From: a virus
Lineage: Duplodnaviria; Heunggongvirae; Uroviricota; Caudoviricetes
DNA length: 9,711 nt
IMG/VR virus record: IMGVR_UViG_2706794665_000014
Reading direction: 5' to 3' (one strand)
The position numbers and the translations under genes are program-made. Positions 225 through 9,621 of the stretch are shown here, piece after piece (position 1 is the stretch's first letter; each line of letters begins with the position of its first letter). The notes under the pieces are model-generated. The model saw only the letters and a list, made by a program, of their open reading frames with translations, did no database searches and was not told where the DNA came from.

Positions 225-558
225 GAACTTGCAGAACGTCATGATCATAACTTCCATCCAAACCGCGACGGCGAATTGCTTCTCGTATTACCGGAAGCAG
301 TTCGCTGGAAATCTCGGTGCATATTTCACCTGATAATACGCTTGGCTCAAGTGAGAATATTGGTGAACTTACGGTCTTGGTCTCGACAGTTTCAGAGTCA
401 GTGCCAACATTATAAAGCTCAACGAAAGCGGTCTTGATTTTCCGGGCCAGATCTTTTGCTGGCTCGCTTGCAATATCTTTCCCGATTTCTCGCAGCACAG
501 AATGCAATGTATGAGCTGCTGTTTTCTGTACATCAGACGGTAAATCTTTAAATTCCAT
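193..558 (-). CDS. Hypothetical prophage early-leftward protein, about 121 aa
   Basis: ORF 193-570 on minus strand. Preferred start is the internal ATG at 558 (MEFKDLPSD...), preceded by GAGG about 6 nt upstream; the ATG at 570 overlaps the upstream gene's stop (TGATG). No family recognised. Confidence 0.55.
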   Translation of the reverse strand: MEFKDLPSDVQKTAAHTLHSVLREIGKDIASEPAKDLARKIKTAFVELYNVGTDSETVETKTVSSPIFSLEPSVLSGEICTEISSELLPVIREAIRRRGLDGSYDHDVLQVLRTMVTSLGI

Positions 559-569
559 CGTCAGCCTCA

Positions 570-722
570 TCAGTCAGTGTTTCTGGCTAACCAGCAACGC
601 GCGCCAGATTCGGTTTTAAACGTTTTGCTTTTGGTATACGTCATGGCGGTAAACGTTCCATCCTGGTTAGGGAACACGCCGCACACCAGAGATTCGTTGT
701 TGCCAAGATCGATAGTATCCAT
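570..722 (-). CDS. Hypothetical small prophage protein, about 50 aa
   Basis: Minus-strand ORF; ATG at 722 is preceded by AGGGGAAATGAGG with 5-nt spacing. The in-frame extension to 776 has no RBS. Stop overlaps the start of the downstream gene. Confidence 0.45.
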   Translation of the reverse strand: MDTIDLGNNESLVCGVFPNQDGTFTAMTYTKSKTFKTESGARCWLARNTD

Positions 723-903
723 GCTGACCTCATTTCCCCTTAACGCCGGGGTGGCGGAACAAAAAACCTGCTGCATAGTTAAAGATTGAACCCTGCCGTC
801 ATGTTCTTACGCCTCGGGCTGGCTACTTAACCCCTGACCACTGTCTGGTAACTCGAAGTATTGCCCTGCATTCTGTGGGGCGGGGTGGGTTGACGCCTGA
901 AAC

Positions 904-946
904 AATAGCATCATTATTTTTTTTTGATGTAAATAGCATCGCTATT
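904..946. promoter_or_regulatory. Leftward operator-like pair: two copies of the palindrome AATAG-N5-CTATT (O_L-like)
   Basis: 904-918 AATAGCATCATTATT (imperfect) and 932-946 AATAGCATCGCTATT (perfect inverted repeat), 28 bp centre to centre. Same motif as the sites in the repressor/cro intergenic region. Confidence 0.4.
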
Positions 947-961
947 GTTTTTTGTTGGGGC

Positions 962-986
962 AAGAAAAAACCACCCTAAGGTGGTT
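962..986 (-). terminator. Rho-independent terminator at the end of the repressor-antitoxin-toxin operon
   Basis: Stem AACCACC (969-975) / GGTGGTT (980-986) with 4-nt loop. On the minus strand the hairpin is followed by TTTTTCTTG (complement of 961-968). It sits 17 bp past the toxin stop codon (1003-1005). Confidence 0.55.
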
Positions 987-1002
987 CTGTCGGCGGGAAT
1001 AA

Positions 1003-1293
1003 TTAACTGTTTTTGCCTGGATACTGTCTTCGAGAATGCACAATATTTACTACTTCTATGCTTGATGCTGTTACTCGGTAAAGGATGATGTAGTTAGGAT
1101 GAGTTACAATTTCACGAAGACCAAGAACTCGCTCGCTTGGAGGATACAGGTAAGGATGCTCTGTGAGCGGCAAAACGGATGTTTCAATTCGAATTTTCAT
1201 TCTGCGTGCTGCCGCGGGATTTTCTTTAGCTATGTAGGCTACGATCTGGCGCAAATCATCACGAGCAGATGGTAGCCATAAAACGGGTAACAT
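1003..1293 (-). CDS. Type II toxin, ParE/RelE superfamily (96 aa)
   Basis: Size and sequence pattern typical of ParE/RelE toxins (MLPVLWLPSARDDLRQIVAYIAKENPAAARR...GLREIVTHPNYIILYRV...IVHSRRQYP). Start overlaps the upstream antitoxin stop by 1 nt (TAATG); GAGGTG RBS lies inside the antitoxin 3' end. Confidence 0.8.
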   Translation of the reverse strand: MLPVLWLPSARDDLRQIVAYIAKENPAAARRMKIRIETSVLPLTEHPYLYPPSERVLGLREIVTHPNYIILYRVTASSIEVVNIVHSRRQYPGKNS

Positions 1294-1487
1294 TATTCAC
1301 CTCTGTGAGTTGCAGCAGCAATTTGGGCAATAATTTGTTCCATTTCCGCCATTACCTCATCATGCGGAATCGCCGGGCGGGGATCCGCGAGGCTTGCTGC
1401 TACTTTGGCCCGCAGCCATTCGTTGTAACTATTTTCTTGCTCAACTGTCTCAAATTCTGAAACCATTGGGGAAAGGACTGTACTCAT
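1293..1487 (-). CDS. Putative antitoxin (addiction-module antidote-like, 64 aa) paired with the ParE/RelE toxin
   Basis: Small acidic ORF immediately upstream of and overlapping the toxin gene. GAGGAG RBS 9 nt before ATG 1487. Sequence (…NEWLRAKVAASLADPRPAIPHDEVMAEMEQII…) resembles antidote proteins that partner RelE/ParE toxins. Confidence 0.65.
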   Translation of the reverse strand: MSTVLSPMVSEFETVEQENSYNEWLRAKVAASLADPRPAIPHDEVMAEMEQIIAQIAAATHRGE

Positions 1488-1506
1488 TTTACATATCTCC
1501 TCTGAT

Positions 1507-2007
1507 TTAGGCGCGACGGCCTTTTTGTGCAGCTAACCACCGCGCAACCGTACGATCCATTGATTCTTTTTTATCTTTCATCTCCTGAAGCATGTGTTCT
1601 TGATCTTCTTTCGGAAAAGCTCTGAACGTATGGATTAAATCTCGTTCCATCGGCTCTACGGCAAACGGTAGTTCATCCTCTGTTTGTTCTGTGTCTGCTG
1701 GTAATGCGACTATGTTATCTTGCTGTGGTTCTCGACAATACATCCTTGCAATTTGCAGCAAATCTACCATGTCTGGCCTGATTGACTCAGGGGGAACTTT
1801 CAGTAAGCCAGCAAACTTTAGAACAGCCTCAAGGTTTAGTGGGGTTTGACCATTTAGGTAGTGACTTACCGCCCCTTGTGTTGAAAACCCCATAATTTCC
1901 GCCGCACGTTCCTGAGTCAATCCCAACTGAGATTTCTTTGCCATCCAGATTTCTTTCAGTCTTCTGGCGGCGTTGAGGTCGGTGTCTGACAATGATTTTC
2001 TTTTCAT
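1507..2007 (-). CDS. Prophage repressor, XRE-family helix-turn-helix (cI/RacR-like, about 166 aa), no recognisable LexA-like peptidase domain
   Basis: N-terminal HTH (LGLTQERAAEIMGFSTQGAVSHYLNGQTP). Divergent from the cro-like gene. Preferred start ATG 2007 (MKRKSL...); the ORF-track start at 2037 is GTG with no RBS. The C-terminal half is acidic with no Ser/Lys peptidase motif seen. Confidence 0.8.
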   Translation of the reverse strand: MKRKSLSDTDLNAARRLKEIWMAKKSQLGLTQERAAEIMGFSTQGAVSHYLNGQTPLNLEAVLKFAGLLKVPPESIRPDMVDLLQIARMYCREPQQDNIVALPADTEQTEDELPFAVEPMERDLIHTFRAFPKEDQEHMLQEMKDKKESMDRTVARWLAAQKGRRA

Positions 2008-2014
2008 ACATCCA

Positions 2015-2084
2015 ATTCTAATAAGATTGCTAATCACTTTGAAATAGTATCACTATTTACTTTTAAAAATAACAGTGCTATTAA
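2015..2084. promoter_or_regulatory. Divergent promoter/operator region (O_R-like) between the repressor and cro-like genes
   Basis: Three copies of the AATAG-N5-CTATT palindrome at 2020-2034 (weak), 2043-2057 (perfect, AATAGTATCACTATT) and 2068-2082, spaced 23-25 bp. Candidate rightward promoter: -35 TTTACT 2056-2061, -10 TATTAA 2079-2084. Candidate leftward promoter on minus strand: -35 TTCAAA (complement of 2038-2043), -10 TAGAAT (complement of 2015-2020), which places the transcript start at about the repressor ATG. Confidence 0.45.
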
Positions 2085-2118
2085 TTATGCATTGGTAACA
2101 CATCACATAGGGCGGATT

Positions 2119-2382
2119 ATGAATCTTGGAGAATATTTGCATCATTTTCATATAACCCAGAGTTCATTTGCTGAGATTGTTGGCGCATCCCAAGGGATGG
2201 TCAGCCACGTTATAACGGGGCGTGCAAAACTTACAGGAGAAAAAATATTACGTTGGTGTGAAGCAACGGGATGGGTGGTGACCCCACATGAGATTGACAG
2301 TAAAACCTACCCCAACCCAACTGACGGCTTGCCTGCTGAGTTTCAGGCTAACACACAACCATCGGCGGGGGTTGATTCATGA
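2119..2382 (+). CDS. Cro-like / YdaS-family HTH regulator (87 aa from ATG 2119)
   Basis: Divergent from the repressor; HTH-like segment QSSFAEIVGASQGMVSHVITGRAKLTGEKILRW. An alternative upstream start at 2092 is in frame. Stop overlaps the next gene's start (ATGA at 2379-2382). Confidence 0.7.
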   Translation: MNLGEYLHHFHITQSSFAEIVGASQGMVSHVITGRAKLTGEKILRWCEATGWVVTPHEIDSKTYPNPTDGLPAEFQANTQPSAGVDS

Positions 2383-2804
2383 AAATCAAGCATGAACACA
2401 TCCGCATGGCGATGAAAGCCTGGGCGCATCCGGACGGTGAAAAAGTTCCGGCAGCTGAAATAACCAGGGTTTATTTCGAACTGGGAATGACGTTTCCGGT
2501 TCTGCATAACGACAGCAAGCACAACACGCTTTATCTCAACACCCAAAAGATTTTCCGTTGGCTGGATAAAGACACCCCTGACGCTGTTGAAAAAATTCAG
2601 GCGTTGTTACCTGCGATCGAAAGGGCAATGCCACCTCCGCTGGTGGCTCGAATGCGCAGCCACAGTTCAGCTTATTTTCGGGAACTGGTGGAGACGCATG
2701 AACGACTGGTGAGAGACGCTGATGATTTTGTCGCAGTGGCAATCGCCGGTTTCAATCAGATGAACCGTGGTGGCCCGGCAGGAAATGCTGTGGCAGTACA
2801 TTGA
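2379..2804 (+). CDS. YdaT-like protein (CII-like regulator family), 141 aa
   Basis: Translationally coupled to the cro-like gene. Size and position match the ydaS-ydaT arrangement of Rac-type prophages. Assigned from gene order and length; weak sequence recollection. Confidence 0.6.
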   Translation: MKIKHEHIRMAMKAWAHPDGEKVPAAEITRVYFELGMTFPVLHNDSKHNTLYLNTQKIFRWLDKDTPDAVEKIQALLPAIERAMPPPLVARMRSHSSAYFRELVETHERLVRDADDFVAVAIAGFNQMNRGGPAGNAVAVH

Positions 2805-2875
2805 CTGACAATAGCCATATCGAATCGCTCCCGGCAACTCGTGAGTAAAAAGATTCGGTATCAGAAGAGGTGAGT

Positions 2876-3953
2876 ATGGCTAACGCCTGGCTCAGATTAT
2901 GGCATGACATGCCAAATGACCCTAAGTGGCGAACAATTGCCAGGGTGTCAGGGCAGCCAATTGCAACAGTGATGGCAGTGTATATCCACCTCCTGGTGAG
3001 CGCGTCACGAAATGTCACGCGAGGTCACATTGATGTCACGACAGAAGNNNNNNNNNNNNNNNNNNNNNNNNNNNNNNNNNNNNNNNNNNNNNNNNNNNNN
3101 NNNNNNNNNNNNNNNNNNNNNNNNNNNNNNNNNNNNNNNNNNNNNNNNNNNNNNNNNNNNNNNNNNNNNNNNNNNNNNNNNNNNNNNNNNNNNNNNNNNN
3201 NNNNNNNNNNNNNNNNNNNNNNNNNNNNNNNNNNNNNNNNNNNNNNNNNNNNNNNNNNNNNNNNNNNNNNNNNNNNNNNNNNNNNNNNNNNNNNNNNNNN
3301 NNNNNNTGTCACGACGAGTCACGACAGATACAGATAAAGATACAGATAAAGAAGATCAAAACACTATGGTCCATGGCGTAAAAAACGCCACGAACCAGGC
3401 AGGGGATGTTCAGACCGTCAATCCTGGTCAGCCAGCAGGCTCGACACCGGAAGCCGATTCAGCGTATGCGCTGAAAGCCGATTCGGGCGCTGTGCAGCAG
3501 GTGATGACCGCAAGGCCGGAGCAATCACTCCAACTGCAGCAGCCTGAAGCCGATTCCGCCATTCAGCGGGAAGCCGATCGGGTAGCCCCGGAAAACACCG
3601 GGCAGCCTGTGGGACGAGTGGATTATCCGGATGTGTTCGAACAGGTCTGGCGGGAATACCCGTTGCGTGCCGGGGCAAACCCGAAGAAATCCGCATTCAG
3701 TGCCTGGAAGGCCAGATTGCGCGAGGGGGTGCCACCAGAGACCATGCTGGATGGTGTGAGGCGTTACGCGAGATACCTGGCGGCGACCGGGAAAGCGGGA
3801 ACGGAATTTGTTCAGCGAGCGACGACGTTTTTTGGGCCGGACCGGAATTTTGAAAACCCCTGGTTGCTCCCGGTAAGCGGCACGAACAACCAGCGTTGTG
3901 TGAATCATATTTCTGAACCGGATACCGAAATTCCGCCGGGATTCAGGGGGTGA
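2876..3953 (+). CDS. Phage replication initiator / replisome organiser (YdaU-DUF1376-like N-terminus), origin iterons inside the coding sequence; frame not continuous across the masked gap (possible frameshift/pseudogene, or two ORFs)
   Basis: ATG 2876 after AGAAGAGG RBS. N-terminus MANAWLRLWHDMPNDPKWRTIARVSG... is typical of phage replication proteins. The C-terminal portion (frame of 3012-3953) ends in a TGA that overlaps the dnaC-like ATG. The frame before the gap (codons at 2876+3n) ends at TAA 3335-3337 after the gap, while the frame reaching 3953 is different. Confidence 0.5.
3004..3350. repeat. Replication-origin-like iteron array (TGTCACG-type repeats at about 10-bp spacing) followed by an AT-rich tandem repeat; the middle is masked
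   Basis: GTCACG at 3004-3009, TGTCACG 3013-3019, GGTCACA 3023-3029, TGTCACG 3034-3040; after the gap TGTCACG 3307-3313 and AGTCACG 3317-3323; then GATACAGATAAA twice (3327-3338, 3339-3350). Confidence 0.5.
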
Positions 3954-4696
3954 TGTGGCATGANNNNNNNNNNNNNNNNNNNNNNNNNNNNNNNNNNNNN
4001 NNNNNNNNNNNNNNNNNNNNNNNNNNNNNNNNNNNNNNNNNNNNNNNNNNNNNNNNNNNNNNNNNNNNNNNNNNNNNNNNNNNNNNNNNNNNNNNNNNNN
4101 NNNNNNNNNNNNNNNNNNNNNNNNNNNNNNNNNNNNNNNNNNNNNNNNNNNNNNNNNNNNNNNNNNNNNNNNNNNNNNNNNNNNNNNNNNNNNNNNNNNN
4201 NNNNNNNNNNNNNNNNNNNNNNNNNNNNNNNNNNNNNCTGATGACCGGGTGCACGAATTTTGTGTTCAGCGGTAAAACCGGCACCGGGAAAAATCACCTT
4301 GCAGCGGCGATGGGTAACCGGCTGATGGCGAAGGGGCGCAGCGTGATTATCGTCACCGAGTCTGATGTCATGAGCGTGTTGCATGACAGCTACGACAACG
4401 GCAAATCCGGTGAAAAATTTTTACAGGAGCTTTGCGGGGTTGATTTGCTGGTCCTGGATGAAATAGGCATTCAGCGGGAGACGAAAAACGAGCAGGTGGT
4501 ATTGCACCAGATAATTGATCGCCGGACAGCATCACTGTGCAGTGTCGGGATGTTAACAAACCTGAATCATGCCGCAATGAGCACGCTTCTTGGTGAGAGG
4601 ATTATGGACCGCATGACCATGAACGGTTGTCGGTGGGTGACGTTTAACTGGGATAGCTGGCGTTCAAATGTCAGCTTTCCGGGAGTTGTGAAGTAA
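3953..4696 (+). CDS. DnaC-like replicative helicase loader (IstB-like AAA+ ATPase; YdaV-like)
   Basis: Walker A FSGKTGTGKNHLAAA and Walker B LLVLDEIG. ATG 3953 overlaps the stop of the upstream replication gene (TGATG). The N-terminal ~90 codons are masked (3964-4237). Confidence 0.85.
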   Translation: MWHXXXXXXXXXXXXXXXXXXXXXXXXXXXXXXXXXXXXXXXXXXXXXXXXXXXXXXXXXXXXXXXXXXXXXXXXXXXXXXXXXXXXXXXXXXXXLMTGCTNFVFSGKTGTGKNHLAAAMGNRLMAKGRSVIIVTESDVMSVLHDSYDNGKSGEKFLQELCGVDLLVLDEIGIQRETKNEQVVLHQIIDRRTASLCSVGMLTNLNHAAMSTLLGERIMDRMTMNGCRWVTFNWDSWRSNVSFPGVVK

Positions 4697-4717
4697 TTTT
4701 TGTTGGAGGATGTTTTA

Positions 4718-5443
4718 ATGGAAACTGTATTTGACGCACTGAAAGCACTGAAAAGAGCCTCTTCACATGTGGTGGCGTCCCGCCTTGGAATCAGCCGTGA
4801 AGATGCGGTCAACGAACTGTGGAAACTGAAGCGCCGTGGTGAAGCGGATAACAAGGGTTCGATGTGGTGGCTGATTCAGGCTGGTGAAAGTGAACCAGTG
4901 TCACCGGTACCGAAAGTGACAGCGCAAATGCTGACTGAGGCGATTGAACAACATGGCCCACAAACGGCGGATGAGCTGGCACTGATGTTCGGGATTACCT
5001 CCCGCCGGGCGAATTCATCGCTGGCCATGGCAATCAGCAAAGGGCGTCTGATTCGCGTGAATCAGGGCGGTAAATTTCGGTACTGCATACCGGGCGCTGA
5101 TTTACCGGCAGAGCCGAAAGCCGCATCCATAGCGGAAACGGATGGTAAAGTCTTTCCTCAGCCAGCAGGTGTTGCGTTACCGGTACAGGAAGCTGCAACA
5201 CAGGAAGAAATTAAAACAGAAACTGTGGCGGACATTGTGCAGTCGTTGCCATCGTTCACCGAAACGCAAGCGGATGACCTGGTTTTACCATCGCTGCATA
5301 TGGCAAACCGCGAACTGCGTCGGGCGAAAAGTCATGTCCAGAAGTGGGAGCGTGTCTGCGCCGCGTTGCGGGAGCTGAACAAGCACCGGGATATTGTTCG
5401 ACAGATTGTCGATTCCTCCGGTCGTATTGTGTCGGAAAAGTGA
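4718..5443 (+). CDS. Hypothetical prophage protein (242 aa), possible tandem winged-helix DNA-binding regions and C-terminal coiled coil
   Basis: ATG 4718 with GGAGGA RBS 7 nt upstream. Two segments resembling winged-helix motifs ([20 protein letters not shown]; [24 protein letters not shown]). No family recognised with certainty. Confidence 0.65.
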
Positions 5444-5458
5444 TTGCCGGGGGCGCTT

Positions 5459-5911
5459 ATGGCAAANNNNNNNNNNNNNNNNNNNNNNNNNNNNNNNNNN
5501 NNNNNNNNNNNNNNNNNNNNNNNNNNNNNNNNNNNNNNNNNNNNNNNNNNNNNNNNNNNNNNNNNNNNNNNNNNNNNNNNNNNNNNNNNNNNNNNNNNNN
5601 NNNNNNNNNNNNNNNNNNNNNNNNNNNNNNNNNNNNNNNNNNNNNNNNNNNNNNNNNNNNNNNNNNNNNNNNNNNNNNNNNNNNNNNNNNNNNNNNNNNN
5701 NNNNNNNNNNNNNNNNNNNNNNNNNNNNNNNNNNNNNNNNNNNAAGAAACCATCTGTGGTTGATCCGGACCTTATCTGGTCATTACCGGACGGAGAAATA
5801 CGCCGCTACGACAGACATCAGAACATAATCTGTCGCGAGTGCCGGAAGAGTGAAGTTATGCAGCGTGTACCGGCTTTCTATCAGGGTGATTTTCAGGAGG
5901 CGGTACTGTGA
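5459..5911 (+). CDS. Hypothetical protein, central part masked
   Basis: ATG 5459 follows the previous stop by 15 bp. After the gap the same frame continues through ...CRECRKSEVMQRVPAFYQGDFQEAVL to TGA 5909-5911. Other frames are also open across the N block, so continuity is unproven. Confidence 0.4.
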   Translation: MAXXXXXXXXXXXXXXXXXXXXXXXXXXXXXXXXXXXXXXXXXXXXXXXXXXXXXXXXXXXXXXXXXXXXXXXXXXXXXXXXXXXXXXXXXXXXXKKPSVVDPDLIWSLPDGEIRRYDRHQNIICRECRKSEVMQRVPAFYQGDFQEAVL

Positions 5912-6539: not shown

Positions 6540-8372
6540 ATGGCCCGCATGTTTGATACATTAGGATTTTACATTATGAATGTGCAACATTTTGATTTTT
6601 TTACAGATAATGAGTTTTCTAATCTGGAAAGATATCAAACTTGTAAAGCCATGGCCAAAGGTTATGCGGGCAATTACAAAACCGGGCAGTCAAGGTTGAT
6701 GCATGCCCGCTCATACTGCTTCAGCATCGTAGCTGCATATTGGGATACCCTTGCAAAAAAGCAAAAAAGCAGCATTAAAATGAGGGCAGTACCGCACACT
6801 GTTTACATAGAAGACATTCCATGTGATGCACGCGAGCTCGCTGAACGAACAGGTGAGCTTATTGCTCAATTTCCGGCGGAGGACGCTGGATATCTGATTG
6901 GGTCAATTTATACGGTAATGCTGCCATCCGCTTACCGTTCGGAATTGGGGGCTTACTATACCCCCCCACCTTTGGTAGCGCGTCTCTTGGACCTGGCTGA
7001 AAAGTCTGGTGTTGATTTTTCTCATGCATCGGTTATTGATCCTGCGTGTGGTGGCGGTGCATTTTTGGCACCAGTAGCCATTCGAATGTTAAAAAAAGAC
7101 AAGGGGTCTTCCCCTGAATGGATGTTGAGGAGAATCAGTCGTCGTTTAAAGGGGATAGAGATCGATCCATTTGCGGCTTGGATGAGTTTGGTATTGCTCG
7201 AATCTGTACTAATGCCACTATGTGTAAAGGTAAAACGTAGATTGCCTGAAGATACAATTATTGTTGCTGATGCGCTTCAGCAAGATAAATTTTCTGGTTA
7301 TGATCTTGTGGTAGGGAATCCGCCTTACGGACGTGTCACTCTCGATATTAAAACGAGAGAAAAATATTCTCGTTCGTTATTTGGTCATGCAAATCTATAT
7401 GGATTGTTCACCGACTTAGCTGTTCGCATGGTTAAAGAGAAAACAGGAGTTATTGCATTTCTTACGCCAACTTCTTTTCTTGGTGGGCAGTATTTCACCG
7501 CGCTGCGAACCCTTTTGACCGAAAAAACTACTCCGTATGCCCTTGATTTCGTCACTGACAGGGATGGGGTCTTTGACGATGTTCTCCAGGAAACAATGTT
7601 GACAGCATTCAAGGCGGGAGAACATAAAGTTCGGGCCCAGGTATCCTCACTTGTCCCTAAGGGGTTGAACAAAGCAAAAATTGAGAAAATAGGTAATGTT
7701 GATATAGAAAAAGGTGGAGCAACGTGGCTTTTGCCACGCGTTAAAGATGATGCCTGTTTTCTTAATGTATTAAAACAGATGTCTACGCGTTTAGCTGATC
7801 TGGGATACTCAGTCTCTACAGGTCAGTTAGTCTGGAATCGATTTAAGTCGCAGTTGCGTACGACGAAAGGAAAAAATAGCTACCCATTAGTCTGGGCGGA
7901 ATCAATAACTTCAGCTGGTTTTCGTTTTAGTGCAGACAGAAAAAATCATGTTCCCTATATCGATATAACCCCACAACAGGGTTTCCTTGTGACAAAATCT
8001 GAATGTGTGCTTGTTCAGCGGACAACATCGAAGGAACAGGACAGAAGGATTTTAGCGGCAATTTTACCTCAGGGATTTATAGATGAAACTGGTGGCGTAG
8101 TAGTTGAAAACCATATTAATATTGTATATTCAAACGGATTGTTCTCTGCGGTTCGCCCTGATGTTATTGATATGCTACTTAATTCGCATGTTGTCGATCG
8201 GGCGTTCAGGTGTATAAGCGGAAGTGTTGCTGTTTCGGCCTATGAATTGAATTCAATCCCGTTGCCTTCTCTGGAGCAGGTGATGGAGATTCAATCGTTA
8301 ATTGATGCTGGCGTCCACAGACGGATTATTGAGAGAACTATCGCTGGTTTCTATGGAGTGATGATTGCATGA
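6540..8372 (+). CDS. N6-adenine DNA methyltransferase, gamma class (Eco57I/TaqI-like), 610 aa
   Basis: Motif X GAYYTPPPLVARLL (about 6948-6989), motif I VIDPACGGGAFL (about 7032-7067), motif IV VVGNPPYG (NPPY at 7317-7328), in the order X-I-IV. Alternative start ATG 6576 with AGGA RBS. AT-richer than the upstream phage genes. Confidence 0.85.
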   Translation: MARMFDTLGFYIMNVQHFDFFTDNEFSNLERYQTCKAMAKGYAGNYKTGQSRLMHARSYCFSIVAAYWDTLAKKQKSSIKMRAVPHTVYIEDIPCDARELAERTGELIAQFPAEDAGYLIGSIYTVMLPSAYRSELGAYYTPPPLVARLLDLAEKSGVDFSHASVIDPACGGGAFLAPVAIRMLKKDKGSSPEWMLRRISRRLKGIEIDPFAAWMSLVLLESVLMPLCVKVKRRLPEDTIIVADALQQDKFSGYDLVVGNPPYGRVTLDIKTREKYSRSLFGHANLYGLFTDLAVRMVKEKTGVIAFLTPTSFLGGQYFTALRTLLTEKTTPYALDFVTDRDGVFDDVLQETMLTAFKAGEHKVRAQVSSLVPKGLNKAKIEKIGNVDIEKGGATWLLPRVKDDACFLNVLKQMSTRLADLGYSVSTGQLVWNRFKSQLRTTKGKNSYPLVWAESITSAGFRFSADRKNHVPYIDITPQQGFLVTKSECVLVQRTTSKEQDRRILAAILPQGFIDETGGVVVENHINIVYSNGLFSAVRPDVIDMLLNSHVVDRAFRCISGSVAVSAYELNSIPLPSLEQVMEIQSLIDAGVHRRIIERTIAGFYGVMIA

Positions 8373-9469
8373 ATCTGCCTGTTGTTCCCCCATTGAATGT
8401 TATCCGGGAAAGATTACAATTAATTTTCCCTGAAGGGACTGAGAATCGTGGATATTTAATTCGGGAAATAGCTGCAAAAACAATTTTTGTCATGTTTTAT
8501 GCTGGTGCGGTTGAGGGGCTGGGGCGATGGATAAGGCCCAGCCAGGTTGTAAGTATGGGAGATTCGCAGGCTGCTCTTACTGATGATGCGTCCAGAGAAA
8601 GCTGGGTAAAGATGACTTTCTCTAAACAAAAGATAAGGCCTGCTGATGCATGGTATGCGGAAAATACGCGTGAGCCAATACGTGATGAAACTATAAAAAA
8701 TGGCCTAATACCTTGCAATGCAATTGTTGAGCGTAAAGGTATACCCACCACATCCTCTCGTCCTCGTTACAGTTTGAATCGCTCTTTTGCAGCACTCTTT
8801 GATGCCGGGCTTGAAGGAGATTCGCTGCTGAGTGCAATAAGTTCCTGGCAAGAAAATCATTTGAACAAAGCCGCTCTTGCTAGNNNNNNNNNNNNNNNNN
8901 NNNNNNNNNNNNNNNNNNNNNNNNNNNNNNNNNNNNNNNNNNNNNNNNNNNNNNNNNNNNNNNNNNNNNNNNNNNNNNNNNNNNNNNNNNNNNNNNNNNN
9001 NNNNNNNNNNNNNNNNNNNNNNNNNNNNNNNNNNNNNNNNNNNNNNNNNNNNNNNNNNNNNNNNNNNNNNNNNNNNNNNNNNNNNNNNNNNNNNNNNNNN
9101 NNNNNNNNNNNNNNNNNNNNNNNNNNNNNNNNNNNNNNNNNNNNNNNNNNNNNNCCAGATATTATTTTGATTGATTTGGGAGAGGACCGAACGGGTTCGG
9201 ACATGCTTGTAGTTTTCACTGAAGTAGTTGCGACAGATGGGCCTATAAACAGGGAACGAAAAGTTACTCTCACTCATTTGGCTATTGACGCTGGGTTCAG
9301 CGAGAAAAATCTTGCATTCCTTACGGCATTTATGGACAGAAGTGCTCTGCCTTTTAAAAAGGCAATACCAGAATTGGCGTGGGGATCTTATGCATGGTTT
9401 GCTTCTGAACCGGAGCACTTAATTGATCTTCGGGATGGTTATCCGGTAAAGATCAGCCAGAGAAAATGA
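8369..9469 (+). CDS. Methyltransferase-coupled partner protein, 366 aa; putative restriction endonuclease (possibly BsuBI/PstI-like), family not verified
   Basis: ATG 8369 overlaps the MTase stop (ATGA) with GGAG about 10 nt upstream, so operon coupling is clear. No catalytic motif recognised by eye; about 90 central codons are masked (8884-9154). Function inferred from context. Confidence 0.6.
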   Translation: MNLPVVPPLNVIRERLQLIFPEGTENRGYLIREIAAKTIFVMFYAGAVEGLGRWIRPSQVVSMGDSQAALTDDASRESWVKMTFSKQKIRPADAWYAENTREPIRDETIKNGLIPCNAIVERKGIPTTSSRPRYSLNRSFAALFDAGLEGDSLLSAISSWQENHLNKAALAXXXXXXXXXXXXXXXXXXXXXXXXXXXXXXXXXXXXXXXXXXXXXXXXXXXXXXXXXXXXXXXXXXXXXXXXXXXXXXXXXXXXXXXXXXXPDIILIDLGEDRTGSDMLVVFTEVVATDGPINRERKVTLTHLAIDAGFSEKNLAFLTAFMDRSALPFKKAIPELAWGSYAWFASEPEHLIDLRDGYPVKISQRK

Positions 9470-9621
9470 CCAAAGTTTGATATCCGCCACGCCCTGAAGG
9501 ATGGGGGTTTTACGGTGCACTGGATAAAAAATCGGTTTCATAGATTTGCCCACCGTGGTATACGCCTGCGATAAAAACTTTATTGTCATCAACGGCAAAA
9601 GCAATAATTGTTCTGTGGCGG

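Follow-up and report, generated by a model that had tools for sequence, protein, structure and literature searches.

Phased repeats and an AT-rich tract inside the initiator gene of a Rac-like prophage form a probable replication origin

Results

An initiator gene with repeats in its coding sequence

We analysed a stretch of 9,711 nucleotides of tailed-phage DNA (IMG/VR record IMGVR_UViG_2706794665_000014; the whole stretch is hereafter called the window) and focused on a plus-strand gene at 2876-3953 that carries a candidate origin of replication within its own coding sequence. The gene starts with ATG at 2876 and stops at 3951-3953. Its product is matched from end to end by the PHROGs family phrog_3729, 'replication initiation protein', with an E value of 7e-257, and RefSeq calls the homologous gene either 'phage replisome organizer' or 'hypothetical protein', the latter in many O111/O103 records. 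Directly downstream, 6 nt past the stop codon, a DnaC-like helicase-loader gene begins (3960-4696, plus strand), whose protein matches NF009043 (E=1.5e-153), the IstB_IS21 and Bac_DnaA ATPase domains, and phrog_50. A reading made from the sequence alone, called the sequence-only reading below, had proposed that TGTCACG-type repeats and an AT-rich tandem mark an origin inside this gene, and that the frame of the gene breaks at a masked block between the repeats.

Two groups of repeats flank the masked block, with cores at 3004-3040 and 3308-3323 about 10 bp apart, as proposed. Cluster 1 (3004-3040, plus strand) consists of four direct GTCAC(G) cores at 3004, 3014, 3024 and 3035, with spacings of 10, 10 and 11 bp. 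At 3308-3323 (plus strand) lies the visible end of cluster 2, namely the last two of five direct GTCACG cores, at 3308 and 3318. The remaining cores can be placed inside the mask by homology: an inverted copy, CGTGAC, about 30 nt past cluster 1, and the first three cores of cluster 2, starting at approximately 3277, 3287 and 3297 when counted back from the right edge of the mask. In L074, an unmasked IMG/VR contig described below, cluster 2 contains five direct (T/A)GTCACG cores spaced by 10, 10, 11 and 10 bp and lies about 225 bp downstream of cluster 1. The full set in that contig is thus four direct, one inverted and five direct cores, of which the window displays six.

The number of GTCACG words is not unusual for a window of 9.7 kb (5 against 2.8 expected; 26 of 200 shuffles reach 5). 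What is unusual is their phasing. Four adjacent same-strand pairs are 10-11 bp apart, a number reached in none of 2000 dinucleotide-preserving shuffles, in which the maximum was one. The initiator coding sequence holds multiple phased repeats, and in the complete 46-kb genome of phage Tritos phased GTCAC pairs occur solely inside the initiator gene. A DnaA-box-like sequence, TATATCCAC, just upstream of cluster 1 was also considered and was rejected as an origin element, being unconserved in the Pseudomonas and Aeromonas phage sequences.

The AT-rich tandem copies of GATACAGATAAA reported at 3327-3338 and 3339-3350 belong to a longer AT-rich and purine-rich hexamer tract at 3324-3367 (plus strand), composed of four AGATAC/AGATAA units followed by AGAAGATCAAAACACTAT, which we propose as the DNA-unwinding element. 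Of all 40-mers, that at 3328-3367 is the least stable in the gene, and only one in the 5.4-kb locus is less stable, so that an easily melted, AT-rich tract adjoins the repeats. In L074 the sequence following cluster 2 is ACAGATACAGATAAAGATACAGATAAAGAAGATCAAAAC, with 75% purine on the coding strand and a GC content of 25% vs 55% for the gene. Runs of two to eight AGATAA-type hexamers follow cluster 2 in most related loci.

The frame break is produced by the masking

The masked block at 3048-3306 consists of 259 N. Taken literally, these place the ATG at 2876 and the stop at 3953 in different frames, with the first frame reaching TAA at 3335-3337; this part of the sequence-only reading is correct, but the break is not confirmed for the genome itself. 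From 375 to 5816, the visible bases of the window are matched exactly, except for one indel far upstream, by the IMG/VR contigs L074 and L068, and both carry 246 nt in place of the 259 N (L074 2673-2918), making the block 13 nt too long. With the mask filled from L074, the initiator frame is intact and encodes 354 amino acids; the true gene length is 1065 nt including the stop codon (L074, ATG 2501 to 3565), vs the 1078 nt displayed in the window. The DnaC-like gene (L074 3572-4318) is likewise intact, with 248 amino acids. The three explanations suggested for the break, namely a frameshifted pseudogene, a changed iteron copy number or two overlapping frames, are therefore not supported for this window.

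The same length recurs beyond these two contigs. Among the fetched loci, 71 align to both flanks, and each of these has 246 nt at the mask position; two close homologues aligned directly show 246 nt opposite the 259 N; and the top-ranked among 2561 matching Escherichia coli records all span 1257 nt vs 1264 in the window. Within the visible part, the sole real difference from most homologues is an in-frame loss of 6 nt, one AGATAA unit of the hexamer tract. Because two further masks overlapping L074 and L068 are also of the wrong length, we attribute the mismatch to the masking itself: the block at 3964-4237, inside the DnaC-like gene, has 274 N for 284 nt (-10), and the block at 5467-5743 has 277 N for 247 nt (+30). 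A fourth, at 8884-9154, appears about 18 nt too long by span arithmetic only, compared with a record whose flanks are 99.8% identical. Real indels would not fall solely, and every time, inside masks; the N blocks are thus not length-preserving, and arguments about frame or spacing across them are unsafe in such windows. An automated listing of open reading frames in the window also includes spurious frames that run through N blocks, for example 3950-4696 and 3012-3953. Taken together, the contig comparison shows the break to exist solely because the 259-N block exceeds the 246 nt that it replaces.

The cores are conserved as DNA

We examined synonymous sites in 22 loci with GTCAC cores from gamma- and beta-proteobacteria, which have a mean nucleotide identity of 73% over codons 5-66. 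At third codon positions, the commonest base had a mean frequency of 0.98 inside the cores vs 0.585 outside (Mann-Whitney p=5.7e-5, 22 loci). In the cluster 1 cores, Val47 and Val54 are encoded by GTC and Gly50 by GGT in 22 of 22 loci, and in the inverted copy, which is conserved in most loci of the GTCAC class, Val65 is GTG in 19 of 19, while outside the cores the same amino acids use all four third bases. The cores of cluster 2 fall in all three reading frames (35, 27 and 36 occurrences of GTCAC across loci). In Pseudomonas phage phi1 and Aeromonas phage pAEv1818, whose N-terminal domains (N-domains) are 68-70% identical, the cores are invariant and the spacers differ; cluster 2 has four copies in phi1 and three in pAEv1818. 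These comparative data show selection on the cores at the DNA level, independent of the encoded protein.

Close homologues differ in length at a few places, always in frame. The variants comprise a gain of 21 nt (two iterons) in cluster 1, gains of 33 or 9 nt in cluster 2, gains or losses of 6 nt in the hexamer tract, and deletions between two 36-nt direct repeats that lie 96 nt apart and encode PEADSA. In the window these repeats occupy 3447-3578 (PEADSA...EADxx), and the homologues P0002, P0003, P0004 and P0008 have in-frame deletions of 8-32 residues exactly between or around them. Since the deletions in homologues cluster there, the 36-nt repeat spacer in the disordered linker appears prone to recombination.

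The core class follows the N-domain of the initiator

A scan of one genome per species yielded 52 proteobacterial loci encoding relatives of the N-domain, and the layout was examined in 52 sequences of classifiable length (49 of the scan loci plus L074, L004 and L005). Two clusters, phased at 10-11 bp, are kept in 44 of the 52, at gene positions of about +130 to +165 and +355 to +430. Three core classes were found, GTCAC(G) in 27 loci, (C)GAACG(C) in 12 and GTAAC(G) in 5, and both clusters have the same core in 44 of 45 classifiable loci. Phage POCJ13 combines the same C-terminal domain with a different N-domain; in place of GTCAC repeats, its gene carries GGGGCTT/AAGCCCC repeats at both corresponding positions, with a purine tract behind them. 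Since neighbouring genes vary between loci, the constant partner of the cores is the N-domain. The core class thus goes with the initiator N-domain, and we regard the cores as putative binding sites of the initiator. Lambdoid O genes show this pattern, with a specificity cassette of N-domain and sites and an exchangeable C-terminal half that meet close to a common AT tract.

An initiator outside curated families

No Pfam family reached its gathering score for the initiator, and NCBIfam and PDB sequence searches with the protein and its domains returned nothing at curated thresholds. The lambda O N-terminal family (PF04492) was not among the Pfam matches even at E values up to 10. Nine of 28 N-domains match PF09681 (Phage_rep_org_N) weakly over profile positions 1-78, with a best E of 0.0013, below threshold, and a remote kinship with replisome organizers of the SPP1 G38P type is possible.

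In an AlphaFold model built from a 20-sequence alignment, the C-terminal domain (amino acids 245-332) is confident, with a pLDDT of about 90. The modelled N-domain is helical, with a hairpin behind two short helices, a fold that, at low confidence, would be compatible with a winged-helix domain. The cluster 1 codons correspond to a predicted loop of the N-domain (amino acids 43-56; pLDDT below 50 at 44-52), and cluster 2 with the AT tract encodes part of a long disordered linker (amino acids 128-243).

The C-terminal tail of the protein, ...ISEPD(T/N)EIPPGFRG (window 3930-3953, about the last 24 codons), is shared with YdaU of the Rac prophage at 68% identity over 19 residues. It also bears a weak resemblance, well short of the cutoff, to the C-terminal end of DnaT, a primosomal protein of the host (NF002770 positions 156-179, E=7e-4), and many relatives among P0054-P0112 have a 'DnaT-like ssDNA-binding domain' (PF17948) as an alternative C-terminal half. 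There are thus hints of a link between the initiator/DnaC-like pair and the host dnaT-dnaC pair.

A palindrome past the AT tract

Directly past the AT tract lies a short GC-rich inverted repeat (3367-3397, plus strand), GGTC..TGGCGT-AAAAA-ACGCCA..GACC. Its DNA fold has an energy of -8.7 kcal/mol (z=-2.2; 6 of 200 shuffles were as good), and in POCJ13 a T/A pair of the stem is exchanged for A/T, so that pairing is preserved. An inverted repeat is likewise present past the AT tract in lambdoid origins, and the palindrome may be a third element of the origin. Across loci, a perfect stem after the tract is modestly enriched (13 of 48 at or below the 0.1 tail, binomial p=7e-4). A windowed minimum-free-energy test for a hairpin at this place was not significant (median percentile 0.43), and we do not advance a hairpin past the AT tract as a general feature of these loci; it is a weak lead.

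Many loci have a GC-rich palindrome or a C-tract/G-tract behind the AT tract (L089, L099, L103, L098, L100 and L006). Several stems look compensatory: CACCTACC/GGTAGGTG vs CCCACC/GGTGGG vs CCTCCTCT/AGAGGAGG around a shared loop TCACT(A/T)CGTTC, and further GGTTC/GAACC vs GGCTC/GAGCC and GGCGT/ACGCC vs GGCGA/TCGCC. Rfam returned no RNA family in the window or in L074.

Genomic context and distribution

The locus is the early rightward part of a Rac-like lambdoid prophage of the E. coli type. A cI-like helix-turn-helix repressor gene lies on the minus strand at 1507-2037, followed by a cro-like gene at 2092-2382 and a YdaT-family gene at 2379-2804; the initiator gene, downstream of cro and ydaT, looks to be part of an early rightward operon of the immunity region. 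To the left of the repressor gene, a ParE-family toxin gene occupies 1003-1293 on the minus strand. Downstream of the DnaC-like ATPase gene come a DUF1627 gene, a DUF977 gene, a zinc-ribbon open reading frame and a PstI/BsuBI-type restriction-modification pair (N6 methylase at 6540-8372, endonuclease at 8369-9469). Separated from the replication module by a few genes, this pair occurs in just 294 of 5426 E. coli genomes. For the minus-strand open reading frame at 9419-9604 there was no Pfam match; related records annotate a RelE/ParE-family toxin under the match near this place.

A query with the left flank matched 2090 of 5426 complete genomes, marking a prophage module of E. coli and Shigella, and a single 90% cluster of the initiator family holds 5786 sequences. 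The family ranges over prophages of gamma- and beta-proteobacteria. Phages vB_EcoS-640R1 (L002 2997-4530) and Tritos (L139 32105-33638) encode initiators that are 98-100% identical and have the same iterons, and a small unrelated open reading frame stands behind the initiator where the DnaC-like gene would be. Since both keep the initiator without that gene, the loader seems dispensable or replaceable by host DnaC.

We also considered whether the module is a common plasmid replicon, and rejected this on a search of plasmid records: only 11 of 72,556 match, mostly very large records or likely phage episomes, and the module is nearly confined to prophages. Two Pseudomonas aeruginosa 'plasmids' of about 50.9 kb, CP137943.1 and CP124671.1, code for an N-domain that is 69.5% identical; size and content point to circular genomes of D3-like phages that were submitted as plasmids.

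Discussion

An origin within the initiator gene

Our results make it probable that 2876-3953 is the intact initiator gene of a Rac-like lambdoid prophage with the phage replication origin inside it. We read the iterons and AT tract as an origin because synonymous sites are conserved in the cores, both clusters have the same core, the core class tracks the N-domain and the adjoining tract is the least stable of the gene. The comparative evidence strongly supports the proposal of the sequence-only reading that an origin of this layout lies within a gene of the O type. The best description is a lambda-type intragenic origin of a replisome-organizer-like initiator that has no Pfam family. An origin inside the initiator gene is a textbook principle, and in this respect the element is of an ordinary kind.

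Several points weigh against this interpretation. The masked bases of the window were deduced from identical contigs. No clear core was found in 7 of the 52 related loci, and L121 has cores solely in cluster 2. Identity outside the loop is 0.71 within classes vs 0.63 between them, so the agreement of class and N-domain may be partly a matter of common descent, and gene conversion between the clusters could keep their cores alike. The DNA-binding role of the N-domain is itself putative, because the match to PF09681 is weak (12.8 bits for the window-type protein, against a cutoff of 23.3), the N-domain model is poor (pLDDT about 55-68), and Foldseek against the PDB gave no match with an E below 1. 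We found no paper on the origin of this family in the searchable literature, which covers few subscription journals; searches on oriJ mapping, ydaU/ydaV, GTCACG iterons and replisome-organizer iterons likewise returned nothing specific.

We weighed three other accounts of the locus. That the gene is truly frameshifted, as a pseudogene or two overlapping frames, by about 13 extra bases in the masked block would follow from the 259 N at face value, and at least one relative has undergone a real inactivation: in L001 (3500-3515, NZ_CP050998) codon 5 of the initiator is changed from TGG to TAG, and RefSeq annotates a shortened 'replisome organizer' from a downstream start. This is not the case in the window, however, where the contigs that agree with all visible bases to either side of the mask contain 246 nt and keep the frame open, other masks are wrong in length as well, and the natural indels of close homologues are all multiples of three. 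We regard a true frameshift as extremely improbable. Hardly more credible is the view that the repeats have no function as DNA and stem from a recurring peptide motif (ASRNVT...VTT, present in both clusters) or from a low-complexity stretch prone to slippage. In E. coli the two clusters do share a 39-nt stretch of 64-72% identity that encodes similar peptides, and the repeat region varies in length from strain to strain. Against this, the cores use all three frames, their Val, Gly and Thr codons are fixed where all four third bases are used elsewhere, the cluster 2 peptides change between genera while the cores stay, and the layout is kept with a different core in the other classes.

More weight attaches to the third account, in which the repeats are regulatory rather than initiating and replication starts elsewhere; they might serve autorepression, act as a roadblock to transcription or translation of the initiator, or control copy number through pairing of the clusters. 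Cluster 1, some 130 nt into the gene, is distant from the AT tract and has an inverted copy beside it, plasmid iterons serve control as well as initiation (PMC3401445), and the evidence for initiation at this locus is comparative. Yet cluster 2 stands immediately next to the least stable tract of the gene, just as iterons and tract are arranged in proven lambdoid origins (PMC7466680), and the complete genome of the related phage Tritos has no other phased cluster. Control and initiation are, moreover, mutually compatible. We therefore consider a purely regulatory role unlikely and retain the intragenic origin as the preferred reading.

By analogy with lambda O at ori-lambda and SPP1 G38P at oriL, the origin could work as follows. 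A helix-turn-helix-like N-terminal domain would bind the cores on one face of the helix, given their phasing of 10-11 bp, and initiators on both clusters would oligomerise, wrapping or looping the intervening DNA of about 225 bp. The resulting strain would melt the adjacent AGATAA tract, whereupon the C-terminal domain would bring in the host DnaB helicase via the neighbouring DnaC-like loader. In relatives that have no loader gene, such as Tritos and 640R1, DnaB might be recruited through host DnaC. Transcription through the gene may help to activate the origin, as in lambda.

Comparison with known systems

In lambdoid phages the origin is made up of iterons and an AT-rich tract located midway in gene O (PMC7466680, PMC6022878), and extra iterons there appear as in-frame extra residues (PMC7466680). 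The locus described here resembles lambda O and ori-lambda, and also the Stx phages 933W and P27, in having repeats and then an AT-rich, putative unwinding tract in mid-gene, an N-terminal half that probably sets specificity, a C-terminal half that would link to the helicase loader encoded next, a position directly after cro and a gene in the cII position, and in-frame length changes from extra iterons in the initiator family. It differs from lambda O in having no detectable sequence relationship. Lambda iterons are 18-bp units (18-19 bp), each with internal dyad symmetry, and four to six of them make up a single array. The present cores measure 5-6 bp, are direct rather than dyadic, recur every 10-11 bp and form two clusters with about 225 bp between them, one of which falls within the codons for the N-terminal domain; in place of lambda P, the partner is an ATPase of the DnaC type. 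Given the absence of a sequence match and iterons that are short, direct and divided between two clusters, we do not assign the initiator to the lambda O family.

G38P of SPP1 binds oriL, after which a loader brings the helicase (PMC5615212), and by the title of Missich et al. 1997, cited in PMC5615212, it binds two distant regions of the genome. The present initiator resembles it in its RefSeq name and in the weak PF09681 matches; these lie under the Pfam threshold, and membership in the G38P family is accordingly unproven. Unlike SPP1, which encodes its own helicase, the window element has a DnaC-like loader only, and its phased cores are solely inside the gene.

The K-12 Rac segment ydaS-ydaT-ydaU-ydaV has the same order, with a cro-like gene, YdaT, initiator and DnaC-like ATPase, and an active origin, oriJ, has been reported for Rac (PMC3945230; Potrykus et al. 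2000, as cited in PMC11014345). The initiator and YdaU align only over the last 19 residues and in the region of the AT tract, where an identical AAAGATACAGATAAAGAT follows the mid-gene repeats of ydaU. The N-domain of YdaU is an unrelated DUF1376 domain (2.7e-26), for which the initiator has no match, and its repeats, unlike the cores described here, are of the ATGTTCAAAC type, both direct and inverted. In K-12 Rac ydaU (L003 4120-4977) they are direct at 4505, 4538 and 4550 and inverted at 4568, and over L003 4440-4660 the repeats are followed by AAAGATACAGATAAAGAT and then a C7...C7GGGGG motif. This arrangement suggests the mid-ydaU repeats and AAAGATACAGATAAAGAT as a candidate position of oriJ.

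Iteron plasmids and secondary-chromosome replicons also place short, helix-phased direct repeats for a replicon-specific initiator beside an AT-rich region; their iterons are typically longer and lie outside the initiator gene.

Implications

Beyond the single locus, the data admit a broader interpretation that we offer only tentatively: a large, uncurated family of initiators may use a bipartite origin whose first array lies in the codons for a surface loop of its own DNA-binding domain, the core classes being natural orthogonal specificity groups exchanged between phages as cassettes of N-domain plus iterons at the shared AGATAA tract. With the first array within those loop codons, a change of specificity among GTCACG, GTAACG, CGAACG and probably further classes would mean that about nine sites and a part of the protein are rewritten together. 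Core class and layout give a sequence rule that could predict which prophages share a replication specificity. The locus also offers a concrete and testable candidate for the origin of a replication module that is among the commonest in E. coli and Shigella prophages.

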